The notes under the pieces were generated by a model. The model saw only the letters and a program-made list of their open reading frames with translations, was not told the DNA's origin and did no database searches. The translations under genes and the position numbers were made by a program. Positions 56-20,635 of a DNA stretch of 64,000 nt are shown here, one piece after another (positions within the stretch are counted from its first letter, which is position 1; each line of letters begins with the position of its first letter). Source of the stretch: a virus; the IMG/VR virus record IMGVR_UViG_3300045988_162176, positions 1 through 64,000 of that record, one strand, 5' to 3'.

Positions 56-106
56 AAGATGATTTATCCGTATATCTTTGTTATTAATTTGAAAGGAAGT
101 GTTTTT

Positions 107-1333
107 ATGGGTAGAAAAATAATTGATTTAACAGGTAAAGATTTTGGAATGTTTCATGTAGTAAAATAGAGTGAGAAAAAATATATTACAGAAAGTGGAC
201 ATTCATTAGTTTAGTGGGATTGTGTTGATAAAGATGGAAATGAATATAAATTATTAGCGCAATATTTAAAAACTTATCCTACTGAATATAATCCATATAA
301 TAAAAAAGGCCATACAGACTCTAAATATAAAAACAATAAAAATACTTGGGTTCAACAAAAAGTTAACTCTTGGAAAGAAAATAATACTACTGAAATTAAA
401 CATCAAAGAAAAAAATATGATTTAATTGGACAAGTCTTTGGAGATTGGGAAGTTCTTGAAGAAGGCGAACCATATCAAAATAAATCTACTATATATACTA
501 GACGTACATGGAGATGTGTTTGCCATCATATTTTAAACGATGGAACAGAATGTGGTAAAGTTGAAGATGTTATTGAAGCTAATCTTGTAAGAGGTAAAAG
601 TTCTTGTTGCAAAGATTGTGTAAAACTTATTTCTTCAAAGAAAATAGAAATTGGGTAGATTTATGGAAAATTAAAAGTTGTTGAGAAAATAACAAAGGAC
701 CCTACTTTAACTGATAGATAGTGTGAATGGTTGTGTGAATGCCAATGTATATTAAAGACAAAAGTAATTCGTTTTCGGAATGTGCTCTTAAGTTCTTCTT
801 CAGTTGGAAAAGCTTGTCATCAATTCGGATGTAATACTAATGAAGTCATAACTGATGAAAATGGAAATATTTTAAAAAGAAAATGTAAAATATGTGGAGA
901 AATGAAAGATGCTTCTTGTTTTAGAAGTTCGCTACAAGCAAGAAAAAATCCAGTATGCTTAGAATGCAATCCAAGGCATCCAGTTATACCAATGACTCCT
1001 GAAGAAAAAAGTCCTCATGAAAGATATAAATTTTATCAAAATCGAGCAAAAAGTAAGGATTGTGAATTGGAATTTACAGAAGAAGAATTTGATAAATTTA
1101 CTAAATAGCCATGTTTCTATTGTGGGGGATATTCTATTAGCAAACAATATCAAGATTAGTTTTGTGGAATAGATAGAGTTGATTCTAACAAAGGGTATTC
1201 AAAAGATAATTGTGTACCGTGCTGTTTTAGTTGTAATGTTATGAAAATGGGACTTGATGTTTATGATTTCTTGGACAAAGTAGAATTGATAAACAAGAAT
1301 CTGGATAATATTAAATAGGCTTTGGAAAAATAA
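107..1333 (+). CDS. HNH homing-type endonuclease, 408 aa if 7 in-frame TAG codons are sense
   Basis: ATG 107 follows GAAAGGAAG. One frame is free of TAA/TGA until TAA 1331-1333, with TAGs at 167, 212, 656, 719, 1106, 1157 and 1316. C-terminal CFYCGG...GIDRVDSNKGYSKDNCVPCCFSCNVMK HNH motif; three Cys-rich FG..L.V N-terminal modules. Confidence 0.8.
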
Positions 1334-2424: not shown

Positions 2425-2457
2425 TCCAGACTCTTCTAATTCCTAAGCATTGTTAAA

Positions 2458-2494
2458 GCCCAGTATCCAATCCCTCAAAGAAAAGATACTGGGC
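2458..2494. terminator. Bidirectional stem-loop GCCCAGTATC/GATACTGGGC (cassette 1)
   Basis: 10-bp perfect stem after stop of 2173-2424; short T stretches on both strands. Confidence 0.6.
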
Positions 2495-2590
2495 TTCATA
2501 GAGTGCTTAGTGTGAATAAGCTCTCTGCTTAATTATGGATTACCTACATAGTCTATAATTAAGTACTAAATTACGAAAGGAGTGATGCAA

Positions 2591-2665
2591 ATGTAGAAAA
2601 TCACTTTTATTAATTACGCTCTCAACGTAGTTGGTATGATTATTTTGAAGAACCACAACTTCTAA
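2591..2665 (+). CDS. mini-ORF 1, MQKITFINYALNVVGMIILKNHNF (24 aa, TAG at codon 2)
   Basis: SD AAAGGAG 8 nt before ATG 2591, which is followed directly by TAG. Peptide aligns with 5 paralogous mini-ORFs. Confidence 0.55.
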
Positions 2666-2713
2666 GATAATTTTGTGCATTAAGAGGGTTGTGTAGGCAA
2701 TCCTCTCATTATC

Positions 2714-2742
2714 ATAATAACACATTTTAAAATGAATGTCAA
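2714..2742 (-). promoter_or_regulatory. antisense promoter TTGACA-N17-TATTAT with TGT extension (cassette 1)
   Basis: Minus-strand -35 at 2737-2742, -10 at 2714-2719, 17-nt spacer. Confidence 0.65.
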
Positions 2743-2776
2743 GGAAAAGACAATAAAACCAGAAAGGAAATGAAGC

Positions 2777-3178: not shown

Positions 3179-3222
3179 CCTCTCGACCCGAGCAAGTCGT
3201 TAAACTACTCAAACATAACAGA

Positions 3223-3248
3223 AGGAGAGATATCCCCCTATCTCTCCT
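3223..3248. terminator. Bidirectional stem-loop AGGAGAGATA/TATCTCTCCT (cassette 2)
   Basis: 10-bp stem, C-rich loop, T-rich flank on the minus strand. Confidence 0.6.
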
Positions 3249-3308
3249 CTGTAGTGAATAAGGACCTACATCCTTGTTTGCTTCTATCAATCTTCAGGAG
3301 GTAAAATA

Positions 3309-3383
3309 ATGAAGAAAATCATTAGCATTAATTATTTCTTTAATGTTGTTGTAAGCATTATTCTCAAGAACTACAACTTCTAA
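3309..3383 (+). CDS. mini-ORF 2, MKKIISINYFFNVVVSIILKNYNF (24 aa, no TAG)
   Basis: SD AGGAGG 7 nt upstream of ATG; close paralog of mini-ORF 1. Confidence 0.55.
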   Translation: MKKIISINYFFNVVVSIILKNYNF

Positions 3384-3446
3384 TAAGATGTAATTAAATA
3401 TCCTTAATAAGAGAGGTGTGTAGGCACTTCTCTTATTCTAACAACA

Positions 3447-3475
3447 AGTATAACATATAAAGTTGTGCTTGTCAA
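3447..3475 (-). promoter_or_regulatory. antisense promoter TTGACA-N17-TATACT with TGT (cassette 2)
   Basis: -35 at 3470-3475, -10 at 3447-3452 on the minus strand. Confidence 0.65.
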
Positions 3476-3502
3476 GAGTTTTATAGAAAGGAATCAAAGA
3501 AG

Positions 3503-5371: not shown

Positions 5372-5380
5372 ACATTGTTA

Positions 5381-5408
5381 GAGGGATGGAAAATAACTTC
5401 CATCCCTC
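5381..5408. terminator. Stem-loop GAGGGATGGAA/TTCCATCCCTC (cassette 3)
   Basis: 11-bp stem directly after stop of 5177-5371. Confidence 0.55.
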
Positions 5409-5499
5409 AATAGAGTGTTTAAGCCCAACTTATTCACTCACACATTAATTTAGCCTACAATAAATTAATGTCTTATTAAATTAGAAAGGAGTTTTTGCT

Positions 5500-5571
5500 A
5501 TGTAGAAAATCTTAGCAGTTGACTATTATTGGTCCACAGTAGTAGTCTTCATCATTTACAATCGTAATTAA
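5500..5571 (+). CDS. mini-ORF 3, MQKILAVDYYWSTVVVFIIYNRN (23 aa, TAG at codon 2)
   Basis: SD AAAGGAG 8 nt upstream of ATG-TAG. Stop codon lies inside the 10-bp hairpin CGTAATTAAT/ATTAATTACG. Confidence 0.55.
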
Positions 5572-5622
5572 TCCATATTAATTACGTCACAAGTAGAGAG
5601 TGTAGGCTTTCTACTTGTGTTT

Positions 5623-5651
5623 ATCTTAGCACACTTGATAATATCTGTCAA
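5623..5651 (-). promoter_or_regulatory. antisense promoter TTGACA-N17-TAAGAT with TGC (cassette 3)
   Basis: -35 at 5646-5651, -10 at 5623-5628 on the minus strand. Confidence 0.6.
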
Positions 5652-5697
5652 GTGGTAATTACAAACATTTTTTGATTTATGAAAGGAATTTAGAATT

Positions 5698-6630
5698 ATG
5701 AAGAAGATTAACCTCACCAACATCAAGAACGAAAAGTCCGTTAGCGAAGTCCTGTTCGATGCACTTAAGCCCAAAGCAATCACCAATGAACAGTCTAAAA
5801 CTGTTTATGCTCTCAAACTCTCTGTTGAGAGAGAAATTGAGAAAAGAGAAGACGGTCGTAACTGGGCTATTAGAGACCTTCCTCTTTATCTTCCTGAAGT
5901 GGATTTACACTATCAGCGTGAACCCAAAAATTATGAAGTAGCCAAAATTACCAACAACTTTAATATCAATAAAGTTGAAGTTAAAGCAGCCTCTATTCGT
6001 AAAGTTGGTAACACTTGGCATCTGTTTCTTATGGATGGTGCTCATACTTTGAGCGTTCTGCTTTATATGCAAAGCAAGGGTTTCCCCATTTATGCTATCA
6101 CTTGTAAGGTTTTTATCAATCTTACTCTGGAAGAAGAAGCAGATTTGTTTGCTACTCAGAATGAGGGCAAGACTAACCTTCGTGGCTACGAAAGATATAA
6201 AGCTGAACTTTGTGCAAAGAAGCCCACAGCAGTGATTATCAATCAGGTTACAAAGGAATTTGGTCTGACTGTTAAGACCAATCGCAATAGCACCATCAAT
6301 CGTTATAACAACATCAATGCAGTTGAAGAGCTGTATCGTATTGTTAAGCGTGATGGTGAAAACGCTCTTCGTTTTGTGTTCGCTGTTCTTCAGGGAACTG
6401 GTTGGAAGGATGATATGGTTTATACTCAGCGTATGTTGGCAGGAATTTCTGCTTGTTATAAGCACTGTGAAGATACCAAAGCGTTCAACTATTTTCTGTT
6501 GAATCTTAAGCAGTATAAGAGCTGTGATGAGTTTGTTCGTGTTGCTCAGGACAAGATTGAAGAACACGAAGGTCATCCTGCTGAAAAGATTCGTGATTAT
6601 CTTCTTACTTACATGGTTTACAAGAAGTAA
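5698..6630 (+). CDS. ParB/Srx-fold N-terminal domain protein (310 aa)
   Basis: SD GAAAGGAA. YQRE...NFN..KV......V....W.L.DGAHTL pattern resembles the ParB-like nuclease N-domain (DGQHR-type); assigned by eye. Confidence 0.6.
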   Translation: MKKINLTNIKNEKSVSEVLFDALKPKAITNEQSKTVYALKLSVEREIEKREDGRNWAIRDLPLYLPEVDLHYQREPKNYEVAKITNNFNINKVEVKAASIRKVGNTWHLFLMDGAHTLSVLLYMQSKGFPIYAITCKVFINLTLEEEADLFATQNEGKTNLRGYERYKAELCAKKPTAVIINQVTKEFGLTVKTNRNSTINRYNNINAVEELYRIVKRDGENALRFVFAVLQGTGWKDDMVYTQRMLAGISACYKHCEDTKAFNYFLLNLKQYKSCDEFVRVAQDKIEEHEGHPAEKIRDYLLTYMVYKK

Positions 6631-6638
6631 AAGAAAAG

Positions 6639-6668
6639 AGACTGATAGCTGTCCAAACTACCAGTCTC
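6639..6668. terminator. Bidirectional stem-loop GAGACTG/CAGTCTC (cassette 4)
   Basis: 7-bp stem; TTTTCTTTT on the minus strand after the stem. Confidence 0.55.
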
Positions 6669-6732
6669 ATTTAAGACACCAGACTCCTGTAAAGTCTGTT
6701 TACATAATTACTCACAGAAAGGAGTATATCAC

Positions 6733-6804
6733 ATGAAAAAATATCTTTATGTCGATATGGTTGCATAGGTTTTTGCAATCAGAGTCCTCTACAACAGGAA
6801 TTAA
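6733..6804 (+). CDS. mini-ORF 4, MKKYLYVDMVAQVFAIRVLYNRN (23 aa, TAG at codon 12)
   Basis: SD AAAGGAG 8 nt upstream of ATG. C-terminal YNRN shared with mini-ORFs 3 and 5, with Arg coded by AGG here and CGT there. Confidence 0.55.
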
Positions 6805-6873
6805 TGAAATAATCGGGGACTAAAACCTACACTCGTCAAGTAAAAGTTACAGGCTACCTTGCTTGATGAGTGT

Positions 6874-6902
6874 AATATAACACAAACAACAACACTTGTC
6901 AA
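6874..6902 (-). promoter_or_regulatory. antisense promoter TTGACA-N17-TATATT with TGT (cassette 4)
   Basis: -35 at 6897-6902, -10 at 6874-6879 on the minus strand. Confidence 0.6.
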
Positions 6903-6959
6903 GTACTTTGTAAAAATTTCTTTTAAATACTTGACACCATTAAGAAAGGAAAGTATAAT

Positions 6960-7151
6960 ATGACCAATAATAAAATTAATTTCACCATTGAAACCCTCAA
7001 TGATAACGGTTCTGGTATGAAATATACTTCTAAGGAAGAATTCATGAAAGAACTGGGTTTAATGATTGATGATTGTATTGCCAATGGCGGTACATTCTTC
7101 GACATTCAGGTTGATTCTGATGCAAGTTGCTTCTGCACTGATGAGGACTAA
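6960..7151 (+). CDS. hypothetical protein (63 aa)
   Basis: SD GAAAGGAAAG upstream of ATG. Confidence 0.65.
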   Translation: MTNNKINFTIETLNDNGSGMKYTSKEEFMKELGLMIDDCIANGGTFFDIQVDSDASCFCTDED

Positions 7152-7187
7152 ACAACCTTTGTGATTTAAGAAGGGAAGTAAAAAATT

Positions 7188-7463
7188 ATGACTATGTATG
7201 CTATGGTTGTTTTCACCAAACGTTATTACAACGGACTTCAAAGAACTCATTCTCTTGAGTTTGAAGTTACAGAAGCTACAAAGAGCTTTGTCAGAACCAC
7301 AAAGGAAATTTGTCACATCCCCATTCGTCTTTCTAAAATTAACGAATACCGTCTTTGTAGCGGATATGAATGTTTGTATTTCTTTGGTCAAGACAAAAAC
7401 AAATTACTCGAAATATGGGAAGAAATGATGACTCCTACGACCAGATTCCTTGAAATGCTTTAA
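7188..7463 (+). CDS. hypothetical protein (91 aa)
   Basis: SD AGAAGGGAAG upstream of ATG. Confidence 0.65.
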   Translation: MTMYAMVVFTKRYYNGLQRTHSLEFEVTEATKSFVRTTKEICHIPIRLSKINEYRLCSGYECLYFFGQDKNKLLEIWEEMMTPTTRFLEML

Positions 7464-7492
7464 CAAATTTATCTAAGAAAGGAAAGTATAAT

Positions 7493-7660
7493 ATGAAATA
7501 CATTATTACATTTACTCGTTATGGCTTCGTTGAGGTTGAAGCTGATTCTGAATCTGAAGCTTTTAATAAAATTGGTGGTTATTGCGCCGACGATATCCCT
7601 TGGTCGGATGAATTTGAAGCTACCAATGTTCAGTCTGATGAAGAAATGGAGGAGGTTTAA
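7493..7660 (+). CDS. hypothetical acidic protein (55 aa), below the ORF-track size cut-off
   Basis: Same 21-nt SD region as gene 6960 (AAGAAAGGAAAGTATAATATG); translated by hand to MKYIITFTRYGF...EEMEEV with TAA at 7658-7660. Confidence 0.6.
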   Translation: MKYIITFTRYGFVEVEADSESEAFNKIGGYCADDIPWSDEFEATNVQSDEEMEEV

Positions 7661-7662
7661 CC

Positions 7663-7995
7663 ATGACCAATCAAACTTACAATTATGTCCTCATTGCCCA
7701 TGATGGTGAGAATTTCTTTCCTGTTTATTCTTCCAACCATAGAACAGTTGTAGAGAATATTATGTGGGCTGTGTGTATTCAAGAAGATGGCTTCAATAAA
7801 ATTGATAACAACAAATTGAGAGATTTCCTTATCCTCAATCGTATCAAACCTGTTGACCAGTTGGAAAACAAAGAAAATCCTGAATCTCCTGATTGGGATT
7901 GGAGAATTTCTCCCTCTCATCTTTTGAAGAAGCTTGAGGGGAATCGCTGGGGTTGGAATATGTATCTGCTTACTGTCCCTGCTCTTAACTTCTAA
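7663..7995 (+). CDS. hypothetical protein (110 aa)
   Basis: SD GGAGGAGG 7 nt upstream of ATG. Confidence 0.7.
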   Translation: MTNQTYNYVLIAHDGENFFPVYSSNHRTVVENIMWAVCIQEDGFNKIDNNKLRDFLILNRIKPVDQLENKENPESPDWDWRISPSHLLKKLEGNRWGWNMYLLTVPALNF

Positions 7996-8005
7996 AGGCT
8001 GATAG

Positions 8006-8033
8006 AGTGCAGGATTGAAATATATCCTGCACT
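8006..8033 (+). promoter_or_regulatory. stem-loop with conserved TGAAATAT loop, copy 1
   Basis: AGTGCAGGAT-TGAAATAT-ATCCTGCACT, 10 nt after stop of 7663-7995. Confidence 0.55.
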
Positions 8034-8101
8034 TCAATGAGCCTTTAAGCTCAATGAATTTACGTCACGTTCAAGACGTTAAAACGGAAAGGAGCCAAAC
8101 T

Positions 8102-8632
8102 ATGGCTAACATCAACATCAACACCAAGAAGTCCCTCAATCGCGTTCAGCTCATGAAAGAAAACAACACCAATATGGAATTCCTCTATATTGACGGAATC
8201 AAGTGCGGTTGCATGGGTTCTGTCAATGACCGCGACCGTGAAGCTGGTCTTGCTGTTATTCAGCGTATCGTTGATAACAGTGATAAAACTGGCATGGCTC
8301 TCGTCATGGAGGTTATGGCTCAGGTTCAGTTTGAATCCTCTATGAATGAGAAGGAAATCAACCCTGATGAAGTCCTTGAAATCAAGGTTGATGGTATTAC
8401 TTATCCTTGCGTCCTCAACTACGAAAAGAAGGCTTTATTTGATGAGGCTGGCGAGGAAATCTGCAACACTCGTGATATTGATTGCGAACTTGATGAGCGG
8501 GCTCTTAAGGCTCTCCTTGAAGCTCGTGCAATCAATGCTCTTCGTAAGGATTTAGCAAGCAAGTATGATGACCGCGAGGACGAAGATGAGGATTGTGAAG
8601 AAGATTATGAGTATTCAATCATCTGCCTATAA
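8102..8632 (+). CDS. hypothetical protein with acidic C-terminus (176 aa)
   Basis: Start moved to ATG 8102 after SD GAAAGGAG; the longer track ORF begins inside the hairpin. Confidence 0.7.
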   Translation: MANININTKKSLNRVQLMKENNTNMEFLYIDGIKCGCMGSVNDRDREAGLAVIQRIVDNSDKTGMALVMEVMAQVQFESSMNEKEINPDEVLEIKVDGITYPCVLNYEKKALFDEAGEEICNTRDIDCELDERALKALLEARAINALRKDLASKYDDREDEDEDCEEDYEYSIICL

Positions 8633-8658
8633 ATTTTCATCAGATTAACAACAAAATA

Positions 8659-8684
8659 GGAGAGGGTTGAAATATACCCTCTCC
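8659..8684 (+). promoter_or_regulatory. stem-loop with conserved TGAAATAT loop, copy 2
   Basis: GGAGAGGGT-TGAAATAT-ACCCTCTCC after stop of 8102-8632. Confidence 0.55.
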
Positions 8685-8708
8685 ACCTTAAAGAAAGGAA
8701 AAGAGAAA

Positions 8709-9065
8709 ATGAATAATAAGAATAATAGCAGTTATATTTCTATTTATAGTGACATTGATACCATCCTTATCGCAGCTACTATTATTATGGCTATTCTGAA
8801 GTACAAGGCAGGATATGATATTCCTACAATTATTGTGTTTACACCTTTAATTGTTATAGCAATTATATTTGGTATTCGCCTTGTTACTGCTATCCTTGCA
8901 TTGGTAGTTATTACTGTTATGGATATCCATGAAGGAAGTAAAAGATATCATGATATTCACTCTCGCTATGAAAACACTCATAGAATTTATTGGAATCCAG
9001 AAACAAAAGAAATAGAAGGAGTTGAACCTATGCCCGAATACGACAAATGGAAAGATGAAGACTAA
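8709..9065 (+). CDS. hypothetical membrane protein (118 aa)
   Basis: Start moved to ATG 8709 after SD GAAAGGAAAAG; two hydrophobic segments. Confidence 0.7.
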   Translation: MNNKNNSSYISIYSDIDTILIAATIIMAILKYKAGYDIPTIIVFTPLIVIAIIFGIRLVTAILALVVITVMDIHEGSKRYHDIHSRYENTHRIYWNPETKEIEGVEPMPEYDKWKDED

Positions 9066-9113
9066 CTCAGATAACACAATCAGTTAATTTAAAAATGAAA
9101 GGAAATTCAGAAA

Positions 9114-11447
9114 ATGAACACCACTTATATTGACAACATCCCCAGCGAAATCATTGAAAAGGATAAAGCTATTGTAAAGAAGTTTCTCTCAACTAAAGAA
9201 AGTATTAATCCCAATCCTAATAGTTGCCCTGATATCATTGTATATTGGCAACAAAAAGCAAATGGTAAAGCTTTCCATTTGCTGAGAGGTGAATATGAAA
9301 TTATTCAACATAACGATACTATTGGGCAGTATCGTAAAGGAGTAACTGGTCATTTCAATGTGAGTAATATTCAATCTCACACAATCGTTGTTGGCTCTGG
9401 TAAAGATGCAAAAGTGGCTTATGCCAAATATTATCCTGAATTTGAAATGCTTGTGTTTGGTATCATGGGAATTAACACAAAAAAGATTCCCGAAGAGAAA
9501 AGAAATTACCATTTTATAGAGCGTTATTTTCTTTTCAAAAATTGCCCTGCTCCATTTGATGTCAATGGAGACATTGCATTTAAATCTAAAGGAGGTAAAT
9601 TCTATAGTTTAGGATTTACTAATTTTCTTCAGCATGATTTGCATAAGACTGTTTCTCATTTCTATTTTTCTCAAGCAATTGAGGAATTTACTAGGAAGGG
9701 ATGCAATCCAAGAATCAAATGGACGCAATGGACTCCCTATACATTTGCTGATTACTATAAAGCAATGTATCCTCGTACTATTTCTAAATCTTCAGCAGAT
9801 ATCTCTGAAATTGTTAATAGCTTACCAACTATTAATTTGGACGAGCTCCGTCAGTTATATCCTAAAAAAGCCGTTGATGTTAAAAACTCTTGGAATGATG
9901 AGTATCACACTGAATACAAAGATACAATTTGGACATTTAACATCTTAAATGATAATTACTGTGTTATTCGTCAGTTTGGCGGTTATTTCGGGTTTGAAGA
10001 GCAATCACGTATTCTTATTGATAATAAAGGAAAAGTAACAATCTTTAAACCCATTTCAATTATTGATGGAGTTGTCGTATTTAGAGTATCTAGCTCTTCC
10101 GATGTTGGAGTTCCTGCTGATAATGTCTGTTTCTTCAAAGGTTTTGAGGATATGTTTAAGTTTAAGAGATTATTTTATATCTCTTCTATCATCAATGATA
10201 GCGACATTATGACTAAAACAAATTCCTTAATTCTCAGGATTATTTACACTCTTAGATGTCCTGCTATCGAACAATTTTATAAAGCTGGATATAAATATAT
10301 TGCCAATTATTTCATGAGTGCGTCTGCAAAATCTGATATTGAACATTTTTTTGGATACAAAAAGTATTCTAAATCTGCAAACATTTATGAGCTTAGTGGC
10401 ATGAACAAACATCAGCTTGAATTGGTAGATAAGATGTTTGAGGAAAAGAAAAAGAGTGCCAACAAATTTGTTAACCAAGGTCTTTCTTATACTCCTCGAT
10501 GTGTAATTGAAACCGTTCGATTTGTTGCTGGCGTTAAAAACCTTTCTTCTATTACTGACAAAGATTCCGACTTTTACTTTACCATGGCAAAAAGAATGAA
10601 TAATGTTCGTTCTGACTATCGTGAGTTTTTGCATTTTGTTGGAGTAAATAACAGCGTGTACACTTTTTATTTTAATAGAAGAAATTATTGGAAAGAAAGT
10701 TTGTATATAAACAAAGAAAAAGATATCCAGTCATCAACTCCCGAACAAAATGAAAAGGATAGAAAGAATCTCCTCAAGCTTATGCGTCTTCAGGAAAAAA
10801 CAGACAAGAAAGGTATTAACGAGGATGTGTTCAGAATCTTTTCCGATGCTCTCAACCTGTTTAAGCAAATCTCAAACACTAACAGACCAGATATTGACCT
10901 TTATGCCTGTAAAGATGTTAATGAACTTCATCGTTATCACAACATGTTGATTGAAATCAACATTGCAGACAAAGAAACGAGAGATAAAGAAGAACAGGAG
11001 AGATTGAATAAGTTAGCAGCTAAACTTTATGACCAACGCAAAGAAAAGTTTGAGTATGCTGATGATAACTTCTCTATCATTGTTCCTGAAGAAATGAACA
11101 AGATTACGAAGGAAGGTGTATATCTCCATCATTGTGTTGGTGGTTATATTAGTCGTGTTGCTGAAGGTAGAACAAATATTCTATTCTTAAGAAGAAATGA
11201 AGAAATTGAAATTCCTTTCTTCACGATTGAAGTTAACAACCACAATGAAATCATTCAGATTCACGGGCTTTATAATCGTTGGCTTGGAAATGAACCTGAT
11301 GCAGTTAAGTTTGTAATTAACTGGATTTATGAAAAGGGAATTAAATGTCCTGTAAACATTGTACTTAATAAAGGTCAAGGTTATAGCGCAAGTAGTAGTA
11401 AGCTTGATGCTAAAGAATATGGTTTGGAGGGTAAAAGTTATGTCTAA
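9114..11447 (+). CDS. PcfJ-like domain protein (777 aa)
   Basis: SD GAAAGGAAA. C-terminal GVYLHHCVGGYISRVAEGRTNILFLRR...FFTIEV...IIQIHGLYNR matches the PcfJ-type pattern and the C-terminus of 16657-18270. Confidence 0.7.
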   Translation: MNTTYIDNIPSEIIEKDKAIVKKFLSTKESINPNPNSCPDIIVYWQQKANGKAFHLLRGEYEIIQHNDTIGQYRKGVTGHFNVSNIQSHTIVVGSGKDAKVAYAKYYPEFEMLVFGIMGINTKKIPEEKRNYHFIERYFLFKNCPAPFDVNGDIAFKSKGGKFYSLGFTNFLQHDLHKTVSHFYFSQAIEEFTRKGCNPRIKWTQWTPYTFADYYKAMYPRTISKSSADISEIVNSLPTINLDELRQLYPKKAVDVKNSWNDEYHTEYKDTIWTFNILNDNYCVIRQFGGYFGFEEQSRILIDNKGKVTIFKPISIIDGVVVFRVSSSSDVGVPADNVCFFKGFEDMFKFKRLFYISSIINDSDIMTKTNSLILRIIYTLRCPAIEQFYKAGYKYIANYFMSASAKSDIEHFFGYKKYSKSANIYELSGMNKHQLELVDKMFEEKKKSANKFVNQGLSYTPRCVIETVRFVAGVKNLSSITDKDSDFYFTMAKRMNNVRSDYREFLHFVGVNNSVYTFYFNRRNYWKESLYINKEKDIQSSTPEQNEKDRKNLLKLMRLQEKTDKKGINEDVFRIFSDALNLFKQISNTNRPDIDLYACKDVNELHRYHNMLIEINIADKETRDKEEQERLNKLAAKLYDQRKEKFEYADDNFSIIVPEEMNKITKEGVYLHHCVGGYISRVAEGRTNILFLRRNEEIEIPFFTIEVNNHNEIIQIHGLYNRWLGNEPDAVKFVINWIYEKGIKCPVNIVLNKGQGYSASSSKLDAKEYGLEGKSYV

Positions 11448-11619
11448 ACGTACACCTAACAATGCTATCACAGAGTATCCCCAGTACGATGGTATGTACT
11501 ATGACCGCTGTGAAGGAATCCAGCGTAAGACTCATGGCAGTTATCGGTACAAAATTAACAAGCAGTACAAAGAAAAGCGGAAGCAATATTTGTACACAAT
11601 AGAAAAAGAGCAGGAATAA
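11440..11619 (+). CDS. hypothetical basic protein (59 aa)
   Basis: ATG 11440 after GGAGGG; overlaps the upstream stop by 8 nt. Confidence 0.55.
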   Translation: MSKRTPNNAITEYPQYDGMYYDRCEGIQRKTHGSYRYKINKQYKEKRKQYLYTIEKEQE

Positions 11620-11630
11620 AATCCTGCTCT
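11607..11630. terminator. Bidirectional terminator AGAGCAGGA/TCCTGCTCT (cassette 5)
   Basis: 9-bp stem spanning the stop codon; TTCTT after the stem on plus, TTTTT on minus. Confidence 0.65.
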
Positions 11631-11705
11631 TTCTTGATATAAGCATTTCCTATAAACTGTTTATATAATTTACCCCTTGTCTAAGGAGGAAAGGAGTTGA
11701 AAGCC

Positions 11706-11777
11706 ATGTAGAGAATCTTCTATGTTGATTATTTCTATGCTATTGTGTAGATAATGGTCATCTATAATCGTAATTAA
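11706..11777 (+). CDS. mini-ORF 5, MQRIFYVDYFYAIVQIMVIYNRN (23 aa, TAG at codons 2 and 15)
   Basis: Double SD AAGGAGGAAAGGAG upstream of ATG-TAG; stop inside hairpin GTAATTAAT/ATTAATTAC. Confidence 0.55.
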
Positions 11778-11849
11778 TCTAGGACATTAATTACAAAACT
11801 ACACAGATGGTAGTTAAGAAGTATAGGATTCTTTCTATCATCTGTGTAT

Positions 11850-11878
11850 ATATTAACACACAACATCAATCTTGTCAA
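11850..11878 (-). promoter_or_regulatory. antisense promoter TTGACA-N17-TAATAT with TGT (cassette 5)
   Basis: -35 at 11873-11878, -10 at 11850-11855 on the minus strand. Confidence 0.6.
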
Positions 11879-11919
11879 GTAGTTTCTAATATTTAATTTA
11901 CTTTATTTGGTTTAAATAC

Positions 11920-11948
11920 TTGACAAACACGGATTTGAGATTTATAAT
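11920..11948 (+). promoter_or_regulatory. plus-strand promoter TTGACA-N17-TATAAT, divergent from the cassette 5 promoter
   Basis: -35 at 11920-11925, -10 at 11943-11948. About 80-nt leader to ATG 12029. The only clear sigma70-type plus-strand promoter seen in the plus block. Confidence 0.6.
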
Positions 11949-12028
11949 AATCTCATCTTAAATCAATCAACATAATAACACATTAAAAACATTTTTGTTT
12001 AGAGCTAATGCTCGGAAAGGAATTTACT

Positions 12029-13039
12029 ATGGGTCTCGCCTCTTATAATACCGATAAGGTCAACGCTGTTATGGAAGCTGTTGAAAATACTCCTCGTAAG
12101 AAGTACTATGAGGATATGGGTATCACTCTTGAGAATGTTCACTCTCTTGAGTCTGCCCTTAAGCTCAGTGGTCTGGATTATTCTGTCGAAAAGCGTCCTG
12201 TCCAGTTCGTAAACAAAGTTGAGCAGGAATGGAATGGTCAGAAGATTCTGGTTGATACTCCGTTTATCATCCCTGACCAGTTTGCAACCATTCGTACTGA
12301 TACCAATGCTCCTCTGGGTATTGTCGGTAAGAACTACAATATTCTCCAGAATCGTGAAGCTTTCGACTTCCTTGACTCTCTTGCTTTGGGAGGTGCTAAG
12401 TTTGAAACTGCTGGTAGTTATGGACCTAATGGAGCTAAGAGCTTCATTACCATGTCTACTGAGCCTATGAAGATTCTGGATGATGAATTCTTGCCTACCA
12501 TGATGTTCCTTAATAGTCATGATGGTTCCAAGGCAATTCAGGCAATGTTCATCAGTATCCGTATCTTCTGTTCCAACTGCATTGCTCGTGCAACTAGAGG
12601 TGCTGAGAATCGTGTGAGTATTCGTCACAGTAATTCTATGCAGGCCAAGTTGGAACAGGCTAAGACCATTCTGCTTCAGAATACCAATTATCTTGAGCGT
12701 CTTAAAGTGGAAGCTGAGAAGCTTGCGGTTACTCCTTATTCCAAGGAAGCCTTCGAAGCTCTTGCTCGTGAGCTTTTCCCTGTCAAGACTGAGGATTCTG
12801 AGATTATTCAGATTCGTAATCTGGCTATGATTGAAAAGCTCATGACGGCTTACAATCAGGATGATTTGGCTAATTTCTCTGGAACTGCATGGCGAGCACT
12901 TCAGGCCATTTCTGACTTTGAATCTCATCCCACTCAGATGCGTAAGTCTTCCAAGTCTACCACTACGGGAGCGTTCACGGCTGTCGCAGTTAATACTATG
13001 CCTATTCTGAACTCTGTTTGGAATCGTATTGCCGCTTAA
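12029..13039 (+). CDS. DUF932-type phage/plasmid-like protein (336 aa)
   Basis: Start at ATG 12029 after GAAAGGAA. TIRTDTNAPLGIVGKNYNILQN and LNSHDGSKA motifs are typical of the DUF932/TIGR03299 family (by eye). Confidence 0.7.
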   Translation: MGLASYNTDKVNAVMEAVENTPRKKYYEDMGITLENVHSLESALKLSGLDYSVEKRPVQFVNKVEQEWNGQKILVDTPFIIPDQFATIRTDTNAPLGIVGKNYNILQNREAFDFLDSLALGGAKFETAGSYGPNGAKSFITMSTEPMKILDDEFLPTMMFLNSHDGSKAIQAMFISIRIFCSNCIARATRGAENRVSIRHSNSMQAKLEQAKTILLQNTNYLERLKVEAEKLAVTPYSKEAFEALARELFPVKTEDSEIIQIRNLAMIEKLMTAYNQDDLANFSGTAWRALQAISDFESHPTQMRKSSKSTTTGAFTAVAVNTMPILNSVWNRIAA

Positions 13040-13056
13040 TCGAAAGGAGAATAAAA

Positions 13057-13482
13057 ATGAAAAAGATTAATCTGTTTGTCCTCATCATTGCAATCCTCAT
13101 GACTTTTATGTATCTCAATAGCAGAGAAAGAGTTGCAGCTTTGGGTGATTCTGTAAAGGATTACCTCACACAAGTAGAGGAATTACAGGAACAGTTAGCT
13201 AAGACTAACGCTCCTATTCCTCCCAGCAACCTTCCTGAAGCAAAGTTCGAAGAAAACACCTATCCTGTTTATGCAGAACTTGTGGATTCAGATGTAGAAC
13301 ATGGGGAATATCGTTTCAGAGTTCTCAATGTAACCCAAGATGAAGGTTTCGATGGTATTTACACTCTTGAAACCAATATGGCTGTATATGAAGATGCTCC
13401 TTATATTCTCACTATGGATAACAATGGGACTAAAGAAACATCTGATGACTACATTGCTGTTGTGTGGATTGCGACTCCGTAA
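13057..13482 (+). CDS. hypothetical membrane-anchored protein (141 aa)
   Basis: Start moved to ATG 13057 after SD GAAAGGAG; N-terminal hydrophobic anchor. Confidence 0.7.
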   Translation: MKKINLFVLIIAILMTFMYLNSRERVAALGDSVKDYLTQVEELQEQLAKTNAPIPPSNLPEAKFEENTYPVYAELVDSDVEHGEYRFRVLNVTQDEGFDGIYTLETNMAVYEDAPYILTMDNNGTKETSDDYIAVVWIATP

Positions 13483-13534
13483 TCTACACTCACATAATAC
13501 CTACAAACAATCATATTAAAGAAAGGAAACCATT

Positions 13535-13873
13535 ATGAACACTATCGCTTACAAGCCTTCTGTCAACAATAACAAGGAAATGATGGAAAAGACCAATCCT
13601 GACAGTTGGAAAGCTATCATTGAGTTTGATTCTCTCGATGAAGTTCTAGCTCTCTATCATGCTCTTAATGATGCAATTGATGACCATTTTAAAGATGCTC
13701 GTAATAAGCATGTATGGGCATTGGGAGCTAACACACAGGAAGAATCTCTGTATTACGAAGCCCTTGCGGAACAGCAGAGAAAATATGGATATAAACTCAT
13801 GAATATTAAGAACGAGCTTGAAAAAACCTTTCATTGTTCTGAATATTACTTTGAAAGAGGTGCAAATAAATGA
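13535..13873 (+). CDS. hypothetical protein (112 aa)
   Basis: SD GAAAGGAAA upstream of ATG. Confidence 0.7.
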   Translation: MNTIAYKPSVNNNKEMMEKTNPDSWKAIIEFDSLDEVLALYHALNDAIDDHFKDARNKHVWALGANTQEESLYYEALAEQQRKYGYKLMNIKNELEKTFHCSEYYFERGANK

Positions 13874-14019
13874 TTACAATTATCCAGAATAAGGATAGAG
13901 CCACATTCAGAGTGATTAACGATGTTGCTTTTGACGAAGTAACCGTTATGATGCAGGATGCCGAAGCTGCGGATGAAATGATTTATCATCTGCTTGTAAA
14001 TGTGATTAAAGGAGAATAA
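13870..14019 (+). CDS. hypothetical protein (49 aa), below the ORF-track cut-off
   Basis: ATGA overlap with the upstream stop; GAAAGAGGTG upstream; fills the gap exactly up to the SD of the next gene. Confidence 0.5.
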   Translation: MITIIQNKDRATFRVINDVAFDEVTVMMQDAEAADEMIYHLLVNVIKGE

Positions 14020-14021
14020 AC

Positions 14022-14321
14022 ATGAAGAAATACATGTACATTGACACTTGTGAACGTGAAATTAACGAACCTACTTTCTTTGATAAGAAGGAAAAAGCCA
14101 TTTACCACATGGTTAATGATTTCTGCACAGTCAGAGACATTGGCATTGATATTGTTCCTCTTGTCATTGATGAGAAAACTTTAAAAGAAGCTTTGTCTAT
14201 TCTTGAAAAAAATGAACTCATGGATGATGAGAACATGGTGGATATCGAAAGTCTTTTGGCTTATGGTACTACACTGAACCACGATAACTGGGATGCTAAA
14301 ATCTTCGAAATTGAAATTTAA
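14022..14321 (+). CDS. hypothetical protein (99 aa)
   Basis: SD AAAGGAG upstream of ATG. Confidence 0.7.
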   Translation: MKKYMYIDTCEREINEPTFFDKKEKAIYHMVNDFCTVRDIGIDIVPLVIDEKTLKEALSILEKNELMDDENMVDIESLLAYGTTLNHDNWDAKIFEIEI

Positions 14322-14401
14322 TCCCAAATTTATATAACTCTTTTATCACAAATTAATTTATTATCCTGTGCTATCGGGTTTACGGGCAGAAAGGAAATAT
14401 C

Positions 14402-14893
14402 ATGAATAACACTTATTTCAACCTCAAGGTCAACTCCATCCCCGCTGGTCAATTCTTCAAGATGGCTTACGTTTCCGATGTGACTCTCTCTGCGCTCGGT
14501 CGTAAAGCTGGTGTCTCTGTTCTTAAGCGTGTTATCGGTACTTATCGTATTGGTGTCAACTACAAGCACACCAAGAAGGCAATCGCAAAGGCTGCTGAGA
14601 AGAATATCCCTATTGATACTGCTTCTAAGCTTCCTTGGGGTCAGTGGAAGGATAACAGCAATCGCATCATCTGCCACACTAATAAGAAGGGTGAGTATAA
14701 TGAGTACCTCCGTGTGTATGACACTCCCAATAAGCCCAAGGTCCAGCACTATCTCAATGGAAAGCCTATTTCTAAGGAAGACCTTCGTAAGACTGGTTTT
14801 GTTCCTGATAGTTATTTCACATCTTTCAATGAGACTGGTTGTATGACTATCAAGGCAGACAATATTGAATGGCTTGGTAAGCCCTCTGTCTAA
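14402..14893 (+). CDS. hypothetical protein (163 aa)
   Basis: SD GAAAGGAAA upstream of ATG. Confidence 0.7.
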   Translation: MNNTYFNLKVNSIPAGQFFKMAYVSDVTLSALGRKAGVSVLKRVIGTYRIGVNYKHTKKAIAKAAEKNIPIDTASKLPWGQWKDNSNRIICHTNKKGEYNEYLRVYDTPNKPKVQHYLNGKPISKEDLRKTGFVPDSYFTSFNETGCMTIKADNIEWLGKPSV

Positions 14894-14918
14894 TTTCAAC
14901 TGTTCAACACATCAATTT

Positions 14919-14944
14919 GGGAGAGAGTGAAATATCTCTCTCCC
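14919..14944 (+). promoter_or_regulatory. stem-loop with conserved TGAAATAT loop, copy 3
   Basis: GGGAGAGAG-TGAAATAT-CTCTCTCCC after stop of 14402-14893. Confidence 0.55.
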
Positions 14945-14977
14945 TTAAATTAAAATATTTTGAAAGGAATTGTAATT

Positions 14978-15133
14978 ATGTCTACTAATGATTATCCTCA
15001 GCTTCGTACTCTCCTTTTTAATTTCTGCCGCAATGAAATTAATCATGGTCGCTGTCCTGCGGATTGTTGTGAGTTCTGTTGTGTAAATAAAACTATTAAC
15101 CTTATCAACATTATAATTAGCGAGACCCTGTGA
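14978..15133 (+). CDS. hypothetical Cys-rich protein (51 aa), below the ORF-track cut-off
   Basis: SD GAAAGGAA 8 nt upstream of ATG; HGRCPADCCEFCC; TGA at 15131-15133. Confidence 0.55.
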   Translation: MSTNDYPQLRTLLFNFCRNEINHGRCPADCCEFCCVNKTINLINIIISETL

Positions 15134-15169
15134 TAAAACTAAAAGCTCTAGTAAGAAAGGAGATTAAAT

Positions 15170-15364
15170 ATGATTGTTCACGTTACCAATATTGAATGGG
15201 ACACTGATGAAAACGATATCCCCAGTGAAAGCCTTCCATCTGAAGTTGACCTTGAGTACGATGACCTTTGTACCAGTTTTTTAAGAGATATGGAAGCCTT
15301 TATTTGTGAAAGCCTTGAAGAAAGGTATGGATATTGTATAAAGAATTTTGCTATTGACACTTAA
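15170..15364 (+). CDS. hypothetical acidic protein (64 aa)
   Basis: SD GAAAGGAG upstream of ATG. Confidence 0.7.
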   Translation: MIVHVTNIEWDTDENDIPSESLPSEVDLEYDDLCTSFLRDMEAFICESLEERYGYCIKNFAIDT

Positions 15365-15383
15365 AAAGAAAGGAGATGTAACA

Positions 15384-15587
15384 ATGATTACCTTAGTAGA
15401 AAATCTTAGTGGCGCTTTGGTCGATTTTGAAGCATCTATTCCCTTCATGGATGACTATATCAGAGAAATGGTTCATAGCATGGGTGACTACAAAACTGAC
15501 CAAGAATTCTTTACTGCTTATGAAGAAGCCCATGCGCTGTTGAAAAAAGAACCATGGGAACTTTCTAAAACTAATCCAACTTATTAA
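15384..15587 (+). CDS. hypothetical protein (67 aa)
   Basis: Start moved to ATG 15384 after SD GAAAGGAG. Confidence 0.7.
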   Translation: MITLVENLSGALVDFEASIPFMDDYIREMVHSMGDYKTDQEFFTAYEEAHALLKKEPWELSKTNPTY

Positions 15588-15600
15588 AAAGGAGAATAAC

Positions 15601-15849: not shown

Positions 15850-15916
15850 CTCTACTCAAATATAAACATCAAACATAAACAACAACACATCTATTGAAAA
15901 GAAAGGAAAAAAGATT

Positions 15917-19548: not shown

Positions 19549-20379
19549 ATGAAACATTTTTATGAAAAGGATATTTTTATCAGTAAGGATGTTGCTGCTA
19601 AAATTAACAAAGCTTGTTCAACAAGTTATCCTGAAGATTGGTTCTCGGAAGATGAAACACCTTTTACACTTACCGCTAAATTTGCGGATGGAACGACAAT
19701 GGATATTCGTTGTTGTGGTTCACAAGAGGCTCCCTCTTGGTGTGAATCTATTCTTTGGGCTCCTGATGAAAACGGCGGTTTGCATGAAATAAATTGCTCT
19801 GGAGAAGTTTGTGATTCCATCCTCGGTAACTGGGAACTGGTTGACCATGATACTGAGAATAAATATATTGTCAATGTCAAAATTGAGGAGGAAAATGAAA
19901 TGCCTACTAACAAGAAGTTTAACGAAATGATTATCCATTCTGAGAAAAACAATTGTTCCCCTTACGTCTCTGTCGATACTCCTAATGGTCAGTTTAGAAT
20001 TTACTGTGAACCTGAAGATGGATATCATGGAGCGTTTATCACGTTTATTCGTGATGGTCAAGCAGTTGAGCAAGATATCTGTATGGCAGAGATTGACCCT
20101 GATGATAAGTCTGGTAATACCTTCTCTGTCAAGGTTTGGAGTGAACCTCAGTCTGAAGAGTATCAGGAAAATATTCATTTTGGTCAGTATCGCGAGCCTT
20201 GTTGTCCTTATTGTGGAAATAAAAGTGTGGATGAGGTAGATGATTTTGGAAACAAAATCAAGTTCCTTTGCCAAGAATGTGGTCAAGATTTCTTAATGAG
20301 TATTTACACAGGCGAATATTTTACTCTTAATCGTATTCCTCTTAAACCTTTTGAGGAAAAAGAAAAGGAACAGGAGTAA
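19549..20379 (+). CDS. hypothetical protein with C-terminal zinc-ribbon (276 aa)
   Basis: SD GAAAGGAAA; CCPYCGN...CQECG near the C-terminus. Confidence 0.7.
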   Translation: MKHFYEKDIFISKDVAAKINKACSTSYPEDWFSEDETPFTLTAKFADGTTMDIRCCGSQEAPSWCESILWAPDENGGLHEINCSGEVCDSILGNWELVDHDTENKYIVNVKIEEENEMPTNKKFNEMIIHSEKNNCSPYVSVDTPNGQFRIYCEPEDGYHGAFITFIRDGQAVEQDICMAEIDPDDKSGNTFSVKVWSEPQSEEYQENIHFGQYREPCCPYCGNKSVDEVDDFGNKIKFLCQECGQDFLMSIYTGEYFTLNRIPLKPFEEKEKEQE

Positions 20380-20388
20380 CCCTGTTCC
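20367..20388. terminator. Bidirectional terminator GGAACAGG/CCTGTTCC (cassette 6)
   Basis: 8-bp stem spanning the stop codon; TTTTCTTTTT after the stem on the minus strand. Confidence 0.6.
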
Positions 20389-20465
20389 TATCTAAAACTC
20401 CAGCCCCGTAAGCTGTTCATATAAATGAAACCCTTGTCTTAAGGAAGAAAAGGAGATGAAAGACC

Positions 20466-20546
20466 ATGTAGAAAATCAAATAGATAAACTACAAATTTAA
20501 CATTTATTACTTCGTGATAGTGTTAACAGGTTTCCTTGAGCTATAA
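20466..20546 (+). CDS. mini-ORF 6, MQKIKQINYKFNIYYFVIVLTGFLEL (26 aa, TAG at codons 2 and 6)
   Basis: SD AAAGGAG upstream of ATG-TAG; stop inside hairpin GTTTCCTT/AAGGAAAC; most diverged family member. Confidence 0.5.
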
Positions 20547-20606
20547 GGAAACTAAAACCTAATACACATAGGGTTGAGAGGTTACGGGTCTCTTAACTCT
20601 ATGTGT

Positions 20607-20635
20607 ATTGTAACATATCAACACAACTTTGTCAA
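20607..20635 (-). promoter_or_regulatory. antisense promoter TTGACA-N17-TACAAT with TGT (cassette 6)
   Basis: -35 at 20630-20635, -10 at 20607-20612 on the minus strand. Confidence 0.6.

Follow-up and report, generated by a model that had tools for sequence, protein, structure and literature searches.

A repeated phage cassette pairing a TAG-containing mini-ORF with a predicted antisense RNA: a candidate type I toxin-antitoxin-like module

The cassette, its mini-ORF and its antisense unit

The window analysed here was a stretch of 64,000 nucleotides (nt) of viral DNA, positions 1 to 64,000 of the IMG/VR virus record IMGVR_UViG_3300045988_162176. The original prediction had described a cassette repeated six times between its plus-strand genes (at 2455-2745, 3220-3478, 5378-5655, 6636-6905, 11604-11880 and 20364-20640), in which a stem-loop (T below), a small hairpin A, a Shine-Dalgarno (SD) sequence with a mini open reading frame (mini-ORF), a hairpin B and a minus-strand promoter followed each other. 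All six copies were present, and an nhmmer profile built from them located exactly six cassettes in the window and no others. Their regions could be aligned over about 320 columns, the invariant ones being the GGAG of the SD, the ATG, the first codons, the minus-strand TTGACA and the -10 box. Cassette copies within one genome were about 55% identical to each other. The six-copy pattern was far beyond chance, because the mini-ORFs had seven TAG, no TAA and no TGA codons in frame over 143 codons and because the arrangement was repeated many times in relatives. Copies 1 and 3 also carried an extra hairpin (X) between the terminator and hairpin A that had not been mentioned before.

Related cassettes were reached via the proteins adjoining them, followed by DNA-pattern scans and confirmation with the profile. 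The resulting family comprised at least 245 distinct cassettes and 114 distinct peptides of 23, 24 or 26 residues.

With TAG taken as sense, the plus-strand mini-ORFs were 23-26 codons long, and the GGAG of the SD and the ATG were invariant in the six window copies; across the family, a GGAG stood 7-10 nt upstream of the ATG in 243 of 245 copies. Re-translation with TAG as sense reproduced the six listed peptides exactly, and the family could be summarized by the consensus M-Q/K-K-I-x-x-V-D/N-Y-x-x-N-I/V-...-I-I/V-Y/K-N/H-R-N. It had been claimed that these peptides were conserved at the amino-acid level, since the Arg of the YNRN motif was encoded by CGT in two copies and AGG in a third, and the Val-Asp codons differed synonymously. 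Both observations were correct, the Val-Asp codons being GTT GAC, GTC GAT and GTT GAT, and the claim was borne out on a broader basis, as the nonsynonymous and synonymous differences (pN/pS) in the ORF frame marked a real coding gene. Namely, pN/pS was 0.038/0.377, 0.095/0.474, 0.069/0.66 and 0.186/0.662 in four orthologue groups (a ratio of 0.1-0.28), while the other two plus-strand frames lacked such a contrast, with pN near or above pS. Moreover, nucleotide differences within orthologue groups were concentrated at third codon positions, and identity by codon position among the six window copies was 0.47, 0.63 and 0.36. Since RNA-level constraint cannot give three-base periodicity, it is the amino-acid sequence, and not just the act of translation, that is selected. 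Judged from these substitution patterns, the plus-strand mini-ORF is translated and under purifying selection. A precursor of the PqqA-like type (a ribosomally synthesized and post-translationally modified peptide) was considered and rejected: the E-x-x-x-Y motif was absent by eye and there was no modification enzyme nearby.

The interior of the peptide behaved differently from its surroundings. At the two syntenic sites corresponding to copies 3 and 4, the ORF interior differed by 0.36-0.48 between close relatives and the flanks by 0.07-0.12 (Fisher p 8e-7 to 7e-11 for core versus flank), meaning that the peptide-coding part diverged 4-6 times faster than the RNA scaffold. Alternative peptides could thus be found in the same scaffold, such as MKKYLYVDMVAqVFAIRVLYNRN and MqKILHVDMDRQISVIRIVYHRN (q, TAG). 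Copy 2 showed the opposite, with 1 of 24 residues changed and flanks that were 25% different. As a separate observation, the AUG-UAG and the bases after it could pair with codons 5-7 in several subfamilies (e.g., AUGUAG with UUACAU) to form a start-codon hairpin, for instance at 2591-2612, 6733-6757, 11706-11727 and in the HRN-type copies of relatives; this hairpin may be partly behind the conserved N-terminus.

On the minus strand, a consensus scan found TTGACA-17-TAnnnT with a TG extension in all six copies, as predicted. The promoter had been said to point back across the module, and indeed a predicted transcription unit, bounded by an intrinsic terminator and a host-type promoter under strict conservation, spanned the mini-ORF completely; the predicted antisense RNAs were about 227-257 nt long, close to the expected 220-255 nt. 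A different picture emerged for stem-loop T, which had been assigned to the end of the upstream gene. Its T-run and its G.U pairs lay on the minus strand, so it was mainly the terminator of the antisense RNA. The minus-strand T-run previously noted in copies 2, 4, 5 and 6 agreed with the minus-strand intrinsic terminators called at these four. The sequence of stem-loop T differed per subfamily, yet the structure always formed, with 82 G.U pairs when folded on the minus strand versus 24 on the plus strand.

Within orthologue groups, the mean pairwise difference was 0.000 for the -35 hexamer. For the -10 box, it reached 0.18 in one of the five groups and was 0-0.02 in the other four, and for the promoter spacer it was 0.05-0.24. 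The third positions of the ORF differed by 0.22-0.36 in the four larger groups and by 0.09 in the fifth. Such constancy of the boxes next to a varying spacer and varying ORF third positions is the typical signature of a functional promoter. The T, A and T of TAnnnT were invariant in 245 of 245 copies, part of this set having been collected by a pattern that demanded them. Because the same promoter class preceded ordinary minus-strand genes at 29448 and 30989, it was the host-type early promoter of the phage. In one relative (L005, 9180-9680), a tandem unit had two mini-ORFs between one shared promoter and one shared terminator.

Two other roles for the minus strand were tried and rejected. A coding gene did not fit, since stops broke every minus frame in at least some orthologue groups and there was no conserved SD-led start. 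A plasmid-type single-strand (Frpo-like) promoter did not fit either, as the alignments placed the -35 and -10 boxes outside any long hairpin. The conserved signals indicated that the minus-strand unit is a real noncoding gene for a predicted antisense RNA. Thus, on the sequence evidence from both strands, an architecture of two genes, a sense gene for a peptide and an antisense RNA gene, is very probable.

Complementary hairpin loops and TAG as a probable glutamine codon

The two hairpins flanking the mini-ORF appeared to belong to the sense RNA. Hairpin B, located between the stop codon and the antisense start site, had a summed folding energy of -762 kcal/mol on the plus strand versus -539 on the minus strand over 48 copies, and its region contained 109 versus 39 G.U pairs. 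In copies 4-6, the outer stem of hairpin B extended right up to the -10 box; the antisense RNA cannot hold the whole stem in these copies because it starts about 7 nt further on. For hairpin A, the plus strand was clearly favoured in copies 1, 2 and 5, and the 40 nt upstream of the SD were the most conserved noncoding part of the cassette (difference 0.015-0.066). Going by the predicted folds, the sense RNA is the strand on which both hairpins form best.

The apical loops of hairpins A and B were complementary to each other and covaried, a feature absent from the original prediction. In an alignment of 35 copies, the six loop-loop pairs were paired in 99.5% of cells. Three of the six pairs changed on both sides (U-A/C-G 28:5, A-U/G-C 21:12 and U-A/C-G 21:11), and none on one side only. 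Across the family, loop A and loop B were exact complements in 215 of 245 cassettes, in six versions: CCTACA/TGTAGG, CCTATA/TATAGG, CCTGTA/TACAGG, CCCGTA/TACGGG, CCCACA/TGTGGG and TCCGTG/CACGGA, the last of which was missed by the exact-match scan and was read from the list of unmatched copies. The G.U pairs of the loop helix were indecisive on the strand (two cases favoured plus and one minus), and the sense and antisense RNAs each carried the same loop 5' and its complement 3'. YUNR U-turn motifs were not seen in the loops by eye. In the predicted folds, the SD had an unpaired probability of 0.13-0.41, and no conserved anti-SD partner was identified. The covarying contact encloses the ORF. 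In its simplest reading, it would close the sense RNA around the SD and the ORF by loop-loop pairing. Such a contact represents a natural mutational series on the closure of a sense RNA or its hand-over to an antisense partner.

A coupling of the cassette to stop-codon recoding had been proposed as well, and it turned out to be real and much stronger than claimed. The mini-ORFs of the window contained seven TAG and no CAA or CAG, versus no TAG and 170 CAA/CAG in 34 neighbouring plus-strand genes, which ended in TAA (31), TGA (3) and never in TAG. The mini-ORFs were thus embedded in otherwise TAG-free operons. Over the family, glutamine was encoded by 128 TAG versus 13 CAA/CAG in the mini-ORFs; in a first set of 37 distinct peptides, the ratio was 49 to 9, versus 22 to 818 in the long neighbouring ORFs of the relatives. 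TAG alternated with CAA/CAG at the same codon in orthologous mini-ORFs. Codon 2 of the 114 peptides was TAG in 85, Lys in 28 and CAG in 1, a TAG share biased upward by search patterns that favoured ATG-TAG copies. Under the standard code, the ATG-TAG mini-ORFs would stop after Met.

Read-through of TAG also joined fragments into coherent proteins elsewhere in the window. An ORF at 104-1333 (plus strand) contained seven TAG and ended in an HNH-like Cys/His motif recognized by eye, with no Pfam match. An unannotated protein of 463 residues at 35495-36886 (minus strand) had five TAG, of which three lay in codons 1-13, and a SPOR-domain cell-wall-binding protein at 53226-54257 (minus strand) had a TAG at codon 5. 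Upstream of the HNH-like ORF, positions 1-55 held a perfect 15-nt tandem repeat, AAAAGATATATTGAG, in 3.7 copies. There was no tRNA gene in the window or in the 32 related loci scanned, most of the phage genome lying outside these.

Recoding of UAG to glutamine by suppressor tRNAs was described for gut phages (PMC10879173, PMC11210395). The phage analysed here resembled these in that TAG was unused as a stop by the 34 plus-strand genes and occurred in frame in a few genes. The described cases were ordinary late genes, whereas the cassettes had TAG at codon 2 of micro-ORFs together with an antisense RNA. The cassettes offer a concrete, testable case of stop-codon recoding as a gene-specific switch. 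The features of all six copies are collected in Table 1.

Table 1. Coordinates of the cassette features in the window (q, TAG read as sense; antisense RNA ends and starts are predicted)
Copy	Feature	Coordinates	Strand	Remarks
1	Stem-loop T, antisense RNA end	2457..2495	-	weak U-tract; extra hairpin X at 2500-2526
1	Hairpin A	2529..2562	+	loop CCTACA at 2543-2548; -10.6 kcal/mol on + versus -4.6 on -
1	SD and mini-ORF	2577..2665	+	SD 2577-2582; ORF 2591-2665, MqKITFINYALNVVGMIILKNHNF
1	Hairpin B	2683..2706	+	loop TGTAGG at 2692-2697, complement of loop A
1	Antisense promoter	2714..2742	-	TTGACA-17-TGtTATTAT; RNA ~2707 down to ~2450
2	Antisense RNA intrinsic terminator	3222..3249	-
2	Hairpin A	3254..3281	+	loop CCTACA at 3265-3270
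2	SD and mini-ORF	3296..3383	+	ORF 3309-3383, MKKIISINYFFNVVVSIILKNYNF, without TAG
2	Hairpin B	3406..3437	+	loop TGTAGG at 3419-3424
2	Antisense promoter	3447..3475	-	TTGACA-17-TGtTATACT; RNA ~3440 down to ~3214
3	Stem-loop T	5381..5408	-	weak U-tract; extra hairpin X at 5413-5439
3	Hairpin A	5443..5470	+	loop GCCTACA at 5453-5459
3	SD and mini-ORF	5486..5571	+	ORF 5500-5571, MqKILAVDYYWSTVVVFIIYNRN
3	Hairpin B	5588..5619	+	loop TGTAGGC at 5601-5607
3	Antisense promoter	5623..5651	-	TTGACA-17-TAAGAT with TG; RNA ~5616 down to ~5375
4	Antisense RNA intrinsic terminator	6638..6668	-	tail TTTTCTTTT
4	Hairpin A	6680..6698	+	loop CCTGTAA at 6686-6692
4	SD and mini-ORF	6719..6804	+	ORF 6733-6804, MKKYLYVDMVAqVFAIRVLYNRN
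4	Long hairpin B	6829..6873	+	loop TTACAGG at 6847-6853; outer stem up to -10 box
4	Antisense promoter	6874..6902	-	TTGACA-17-TGtTATATT; RNA ~6867 down to ~6630
5	Antisense RNA intrinsic terminator	11603..11634	-
5	Hairpin A	11637..11666	+	loop TCCTATA at 11648-11654
5	SD and mini-ORF	11691..11777	+	ORF 11706-11777, MqRIFYVDYFYAIVqIMVIYNRN
5	Long hairpin B	11801..11847	+	loop TATAGGA at 11822-11828
5	Antisense promoter	11850..11878	-	TTGACA-17-TAATAT with TG; RNA ~11843 down to ~11595
6	Antisense RNA intrinsic terminator	20366..20389	-	tail TTTCTTTTT
6	Hairpin A	20401..20415	+	loop CCCGTAA at 20405-20411
6	SD and mini-ORF	20450..20546	+	ORF 20466-20546, MqKIKqINYKFNIYYFVIVLTGFLEL
6	Long hairpin B	20566..20604	+	loop TTACGGG at 20582-20588
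6	Antisense promoter	20607..20635	-	TTGACA-17-TGtTACAAT; RNA ~20600 down to ~20358

Type I logic, named systems and competing explanations

The cassette was originally likened to a type I toxin-antitoxin locus of the Fst type. The general likeness held with respect to the coding gene and the conserved antisense promoter and terminator, and failed with respect to the Fst geometry and a uniformly hydrophobic peptide. Under the general definitions of type I systems (PMC6563280, PMC2887945, PMC8309996), we found a small coding gene of less than about 60 codons, its translation judged from selection, and an antisense RNA gene at the level of sequence signals. The type I definition further includes a hydrophobic peptide with a predicted transmembrane helix that is toxic upon over-expression and is neutralized by the antisense RNA, the antitoxin being less stable than the mRNA of the toxin. 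For toxin mRNAs, the T1TAdb criteria include 5' stem-loops, sequestration of the SD and 5'-3' long-distance pairing (PMC8594479).

Fst (par of pAD1, RNA I-RNA II) and related Firmicute type I loci resembled the cassette in their small peptide with an antisense RNA and their low-GC, SD-using, sigma-A-promoter setting. Masking of the SD by 5' structure in the toxin message and pairing that begins at loops, as in Fst, may apply to the cassette too. However, the two Fst RNAs run towards a terminator that they share, and their overlap is limited to the 3' ends and short repeats, whereas in the phage cassette the terminator was upstream of the mini-ORF, which had no terminator itself, and the predicted antisense RNA covered the ORF, the SD and the leader completely. 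The peptides did not belong to the Fst toxin family by Pfam or NCBIfam at E-values up to 10.

The closest layout was that of Ibs/Sib from E. coli, a system with full overlap and several diverged copies. There, too, a very short ORF (Ibs, 18-19 codons) is fully overlapped by a cis antisense RNA that covers both the SD and the ORF, and each of the several diverged copies per genome has its cognate RNA. In contrast, no sequence or profile similarity to the cassettes was found, and Ibs is almost purely hydrophobic while the phage peptides were not. The phage sense gene, moreover, was located within an operon, contained recoded TAG and was flanked by hairpins with mutually complementary loops.

The hok/sok and aapA/IsoA systems shared with the cassette a long-distance 5'-3' interaction in the toxin mRNA that encloses the ORF, predicted in the case of the phage, and a strong antisense promoter, and aapA/IsoA also the multi-copy paralogues. 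Their long-distance contact, however, is a linear helix removed by 3' processing, unlike the contact of 6-8 bp between the loops of two hairpins in the phage cassettes, where processing was not evidenced. For Ibs/Sib, Ldr/Rdl, Hok/Sok, TxpA/RatA and other named families, there was no match of a peptide profile or an RNA covariance model. The statement that the cassette is not a described system agreed with the absence of RNA or protein family matches in Rfam, Pfam and NCBIfam; the best Rfam hit was only Ref66 (E = 2.7, 19 bits versus a threshold of 92 bits).

According to the mechanism that we propose, the peptide gene would be part of a read-through early operon, with a strong SD, between hairpins A and B with their pairable loops. 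An antisense RNA of about 230-255 nt would start from the sigma-A-like, extended -10 promoter just beyond hairpin B, run from this hairpin over the complete ORF and its SD to hairpin A, and end at the intrinsic terminator. This abundant RNA would pair with the peptide message, probably first at the exposed loops, and this pairing would block translation or trigger cleavage of the duplex. A second lock may exist in most copies, where the codon-2 TAG would halt ribosomes after Met before a suppressor tRNA is active. The peptide would then be made only late in infection or when the antisense supply collapses, and once released it would harm or reprogram the cell. For the whole statement, a two-gene module with type I toxin-antitoxin logic in the Ibs/Sib layout, the sequence signals leave us evenly divided; a toxin-like function of the peptide, taken separately, is a tentative proposal with somewhat less than an even chance.

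A number of observations weighed against this proposal. The peptides, described earlier as hydrophobic, were moderately so (median GRAVY, the grand average of hydropathy, 0.36), which is atypical of type I toxins, and they did not form a uniform membrane-type class. Their longest uncharged run never exceeded 19 residues, the median being 13; the KNYNF subfamily was borderline for a transmembrane helix, with an uncharged run of 16 residues, and the YHRN subfamily was polar (GRAVY about -0.2), with charged residues all along. Together, V, I, Y, F, W and T made up nearly half of all peptide residues, a composition that suggests beta structure rather than a transmembrane helix. Eight peptides had no Pfam or NCBIfam matches at E-values up to 10, and Rfam had no match to the cassette at the gathering score or at E-values up to 5.

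Other difficulties concerned the RNA. The mini-ORF had neither its own promoter nor its own terminator. Because there was no consistent plus-strand -35/-10 pair inside the cassette and hence no convincing sense promoter, the "toxin mRNA" would have to be part of a polycistronic message. Hairpin B was not followed by a U-tract in five of the six window copies, the exception being copy 3. About 12% of the copies lacked an exact loop match, mostly with one-base differences, and one subfamily lacked hairpin A. An intramolecular loop pairing is unnecessary for target finding by a cis-antisense RNA, which is already complementary to its target, so the contact between loops A and B must serve another role. 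Finally, if TAG acted as a lock, classical post-segregational killing would fail in cells without a suppressor tRNA.

In the main rival explanation, the peptides would be micro-proteins that are made late and are not toxic, such as anti-defence factors or ligands of a host or phage protein, with the antisense RNA and the TAG only keeping them off early and on late. The same peptide properties spoke for it, as the peptides were under purifying selection and yet not membrane-like, with one polar subfamily. The 4-6 times faster replacement of the core relative to the scaffold at two syntenic sites looked like an arms race, and the modules were found among genes of the plasmid-leading-region type (two PcfJ-like, DUF932, DUF6551/ParB-like and SprT-like). 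According to a published proposal, TAG-bearing genes of recoded phages become readable only after the suppressor tRNA is active; if TAG genes are readable only in this way, the TAG gate would fit late expression. On the other hand, a late operon would suffice for this purpose, and a strong antisense gene for each of more than 200 copies suggests that expression is tightly held off. Moreover, chromosomal type I systems characteristically comprise multi-copy paralogues that are each paired with a cognate antisense RNA. We consider this rival unlikely, though it is the strongest of those weighed.

A more specific version of the type I proposal would make the module a double-locked "dead-man switch" or lysis clock, the fast-diversifying peptides being freed late or upon a shut-off of phage transcription such as host defence might cause. 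A cis-encoded antitoxin would re-match automatically at each replacement of the peptide core, and the covarying loops A and B could serve as a key of each module that keeps the sense RNA closed. This version is speculative and, in our estimate, rather improbable. If true, large and possibly lytic phages would have their first native type I-like system, and genetic-code switching would for the first time serve as a safety catch for a toxin.

Operon-level control was given a clearly smaller chance. Here, the strong convergent promoter and the RNA duplex would attenuate, insulate or process the long plus-strand early transcripts by transcriptional interference and RNase III cleavage; translation of the mini-ORF would matter only as an act, with the ORF being a leader peptide or a start-stop sensor of TAG reading. 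The next gene began within about 35 nt of the antisense -35 box in copies 1, 2, 3 and 6, so its transcript must cross the cassette, and the polarity of the terminators meant that the plus strand was expected to read through. An ATG-TAG behind a strong SD is a start-stop unit under the standard code, and in copy-number controls of plasmids, such as repY-repZ of IncI/IncB and tap-repA of R1, a leader peptide goes together with a long-range loop pseudoknot and an antisense RNA. However, the pN/pS ratios showed a selected amino-acid sequence, and codon 2 was Lys in copy 2 and in 27 other peptides, which therefore had no start-stop unit. From the stop codon of the mini-ORF, it was 17-50 nt to hairpin B and more than 100 nt to the following start codon, distances that leave no translational coupling. 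Thus, the spacing was too large for a leader-peptide attenuator or for coupling, and the purifying selection on the peptide sequence did not fit them either.

It was very improbable that the cassettes are mobile or recombinogenic regulatory elements that shuffle gene modules like the promoter-early stem-loop (PeSL) motifs of T4-type phages. PeSLs similarly combine a repeated intergenic stem-loop with a host-type early promoter separating accessory modules; the repeated promoter and stem-loop elements of the cassette flanked variable accessory genes, and their copy number and neighbours varied among close relatives. However, PeSLs are about 50-70 bp long, co-oriented with genes and encode nothing (PMC2839356, PMC4122927). 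The cassette promoter was antisense, directed against the genes, a selected ORF and covarying RNA loops foreign to PeSLs were present, and copies of about 55% identity within a genome are too diverged for homologous exchange.

The least probable reading, that the peptides are exported signalling precursors (SHP, PrgQ, arbitrium) under antisense control like prgQ/Anti-Q of pCF10, could draw on their 23-26 residues, N-terminal M-K/Q-K, Ile/Val-rich stretch and subfamily-specific C-termini and on prgQ being a 23-codon ORF overlapped by a countertranscript, but no Rgg or RRNPP type receptor gene was found beside any copy, six or more paralogues per genome would require equally many receptors, and the N-terminus and the middle were conserved as well as the C-terminus.

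Returning to the antisense-controlled peptide gene, we regard the cassettes as a new family that varies the theme of small toxins under antisense control in a new way. Its distinguishing traits are the occurrence in large recoded gut phages, the high copy number, the TAG gate, the covarying loop contact and the replaceable peptide core. Present in hundreds of variants and at least six times per genome, a clade-specific family would broaden the view of the occurrence of such modules and of the reasons for it. The fast turnover of the core in a conserved RNA scaffold points to an arms race with a gut-bacterial target. Genes of 23-26 codons also escape standard gene callers, being both short and TAG-containing.

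Relatives, host and genomic surroundings

IMG/VR contigs of 108-220 kb carried the module many times, always co-oriented with the neighbouring genes, and within IMG/VR the family was confined to one clade of TAG-recoded phages of 110-220 kb. Many metagenome assemblies of human-gut and viral origin contained it as well. Of 185,579 species genomes, a single metagenome-assembled genome had it, in one 28 kb contig. The DNA pattern also hit unrelated viral contigs and 77 of 78 genome contigs by chance; nhmmer confirmed only 3300026549_000037 and this 28 kb contig, which was binned as Bacteroidaceae. The bin assignment was doubtful because of the use of SD sequences and sigma-A-type signals. The same features, SD use and sigma-A-type promoters, point to a Bacillota host, with the Bacteroidaceae-binned contig as weak contrary evidence.

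Copy number and neighbouring genes of the cassettes varied among close relatives. A more distant relative (L011), with a DUF932 protein 57% identical, had no cassette and no antisense consensus promoter, and positions 1-24000 of the window had no megablast match in the INPHARED phage collection. In another relative (L003), one cassette copy was partly duplicated (505-894), and the copy at 20765 had an unrelated ORF of 34 codons (MqKMKTHQLL...).

The plus-strand block at 5698-22778 encoded DUF6551/ParB-like (5698-6630), PcfJ-like (9114-11447 and 16651-18270), DUF932 (12008-13039) and SprT-like (22092-22778) proteins, and most of its other genes were without annotation. We take the PcfJ-like, DUF932, DUF6551/ParB-like and SprT-like families to be typical of plasmid leading regions. 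Such regions are rich in anti-defence genes (PMC11541004). By analogy, the gene content suggests that the block may be an early anti-defence or establishment region.

Several minor features were also observed. At 6931-6960 (plus strand), a perfect 12/12 promoter match, TTGACA-17-TATAAT, ended one base before an ATG (6960); it cannot serve the ORF at 6960, since it contains the SD of that ORF. The minus-strand block included a Bax1-I (BAX inhibitor/YccA-like) family membrane protein at 50047-50736 (minus strand). A TnpB/IS605 OrfB gene at 61166-62317 (minus strand) had the domains HTH_OrfB_IS605, OrfB_IS605 and Cas12f1-like_TNB. Directly 3' of it, at 61047-61119 (minus strand), was a RAGATH-18 RNA (Rfam RF03064, 59.9 bits), which is probably the guide (omega) RNA or the right end of an IS605-type element inside the phage.

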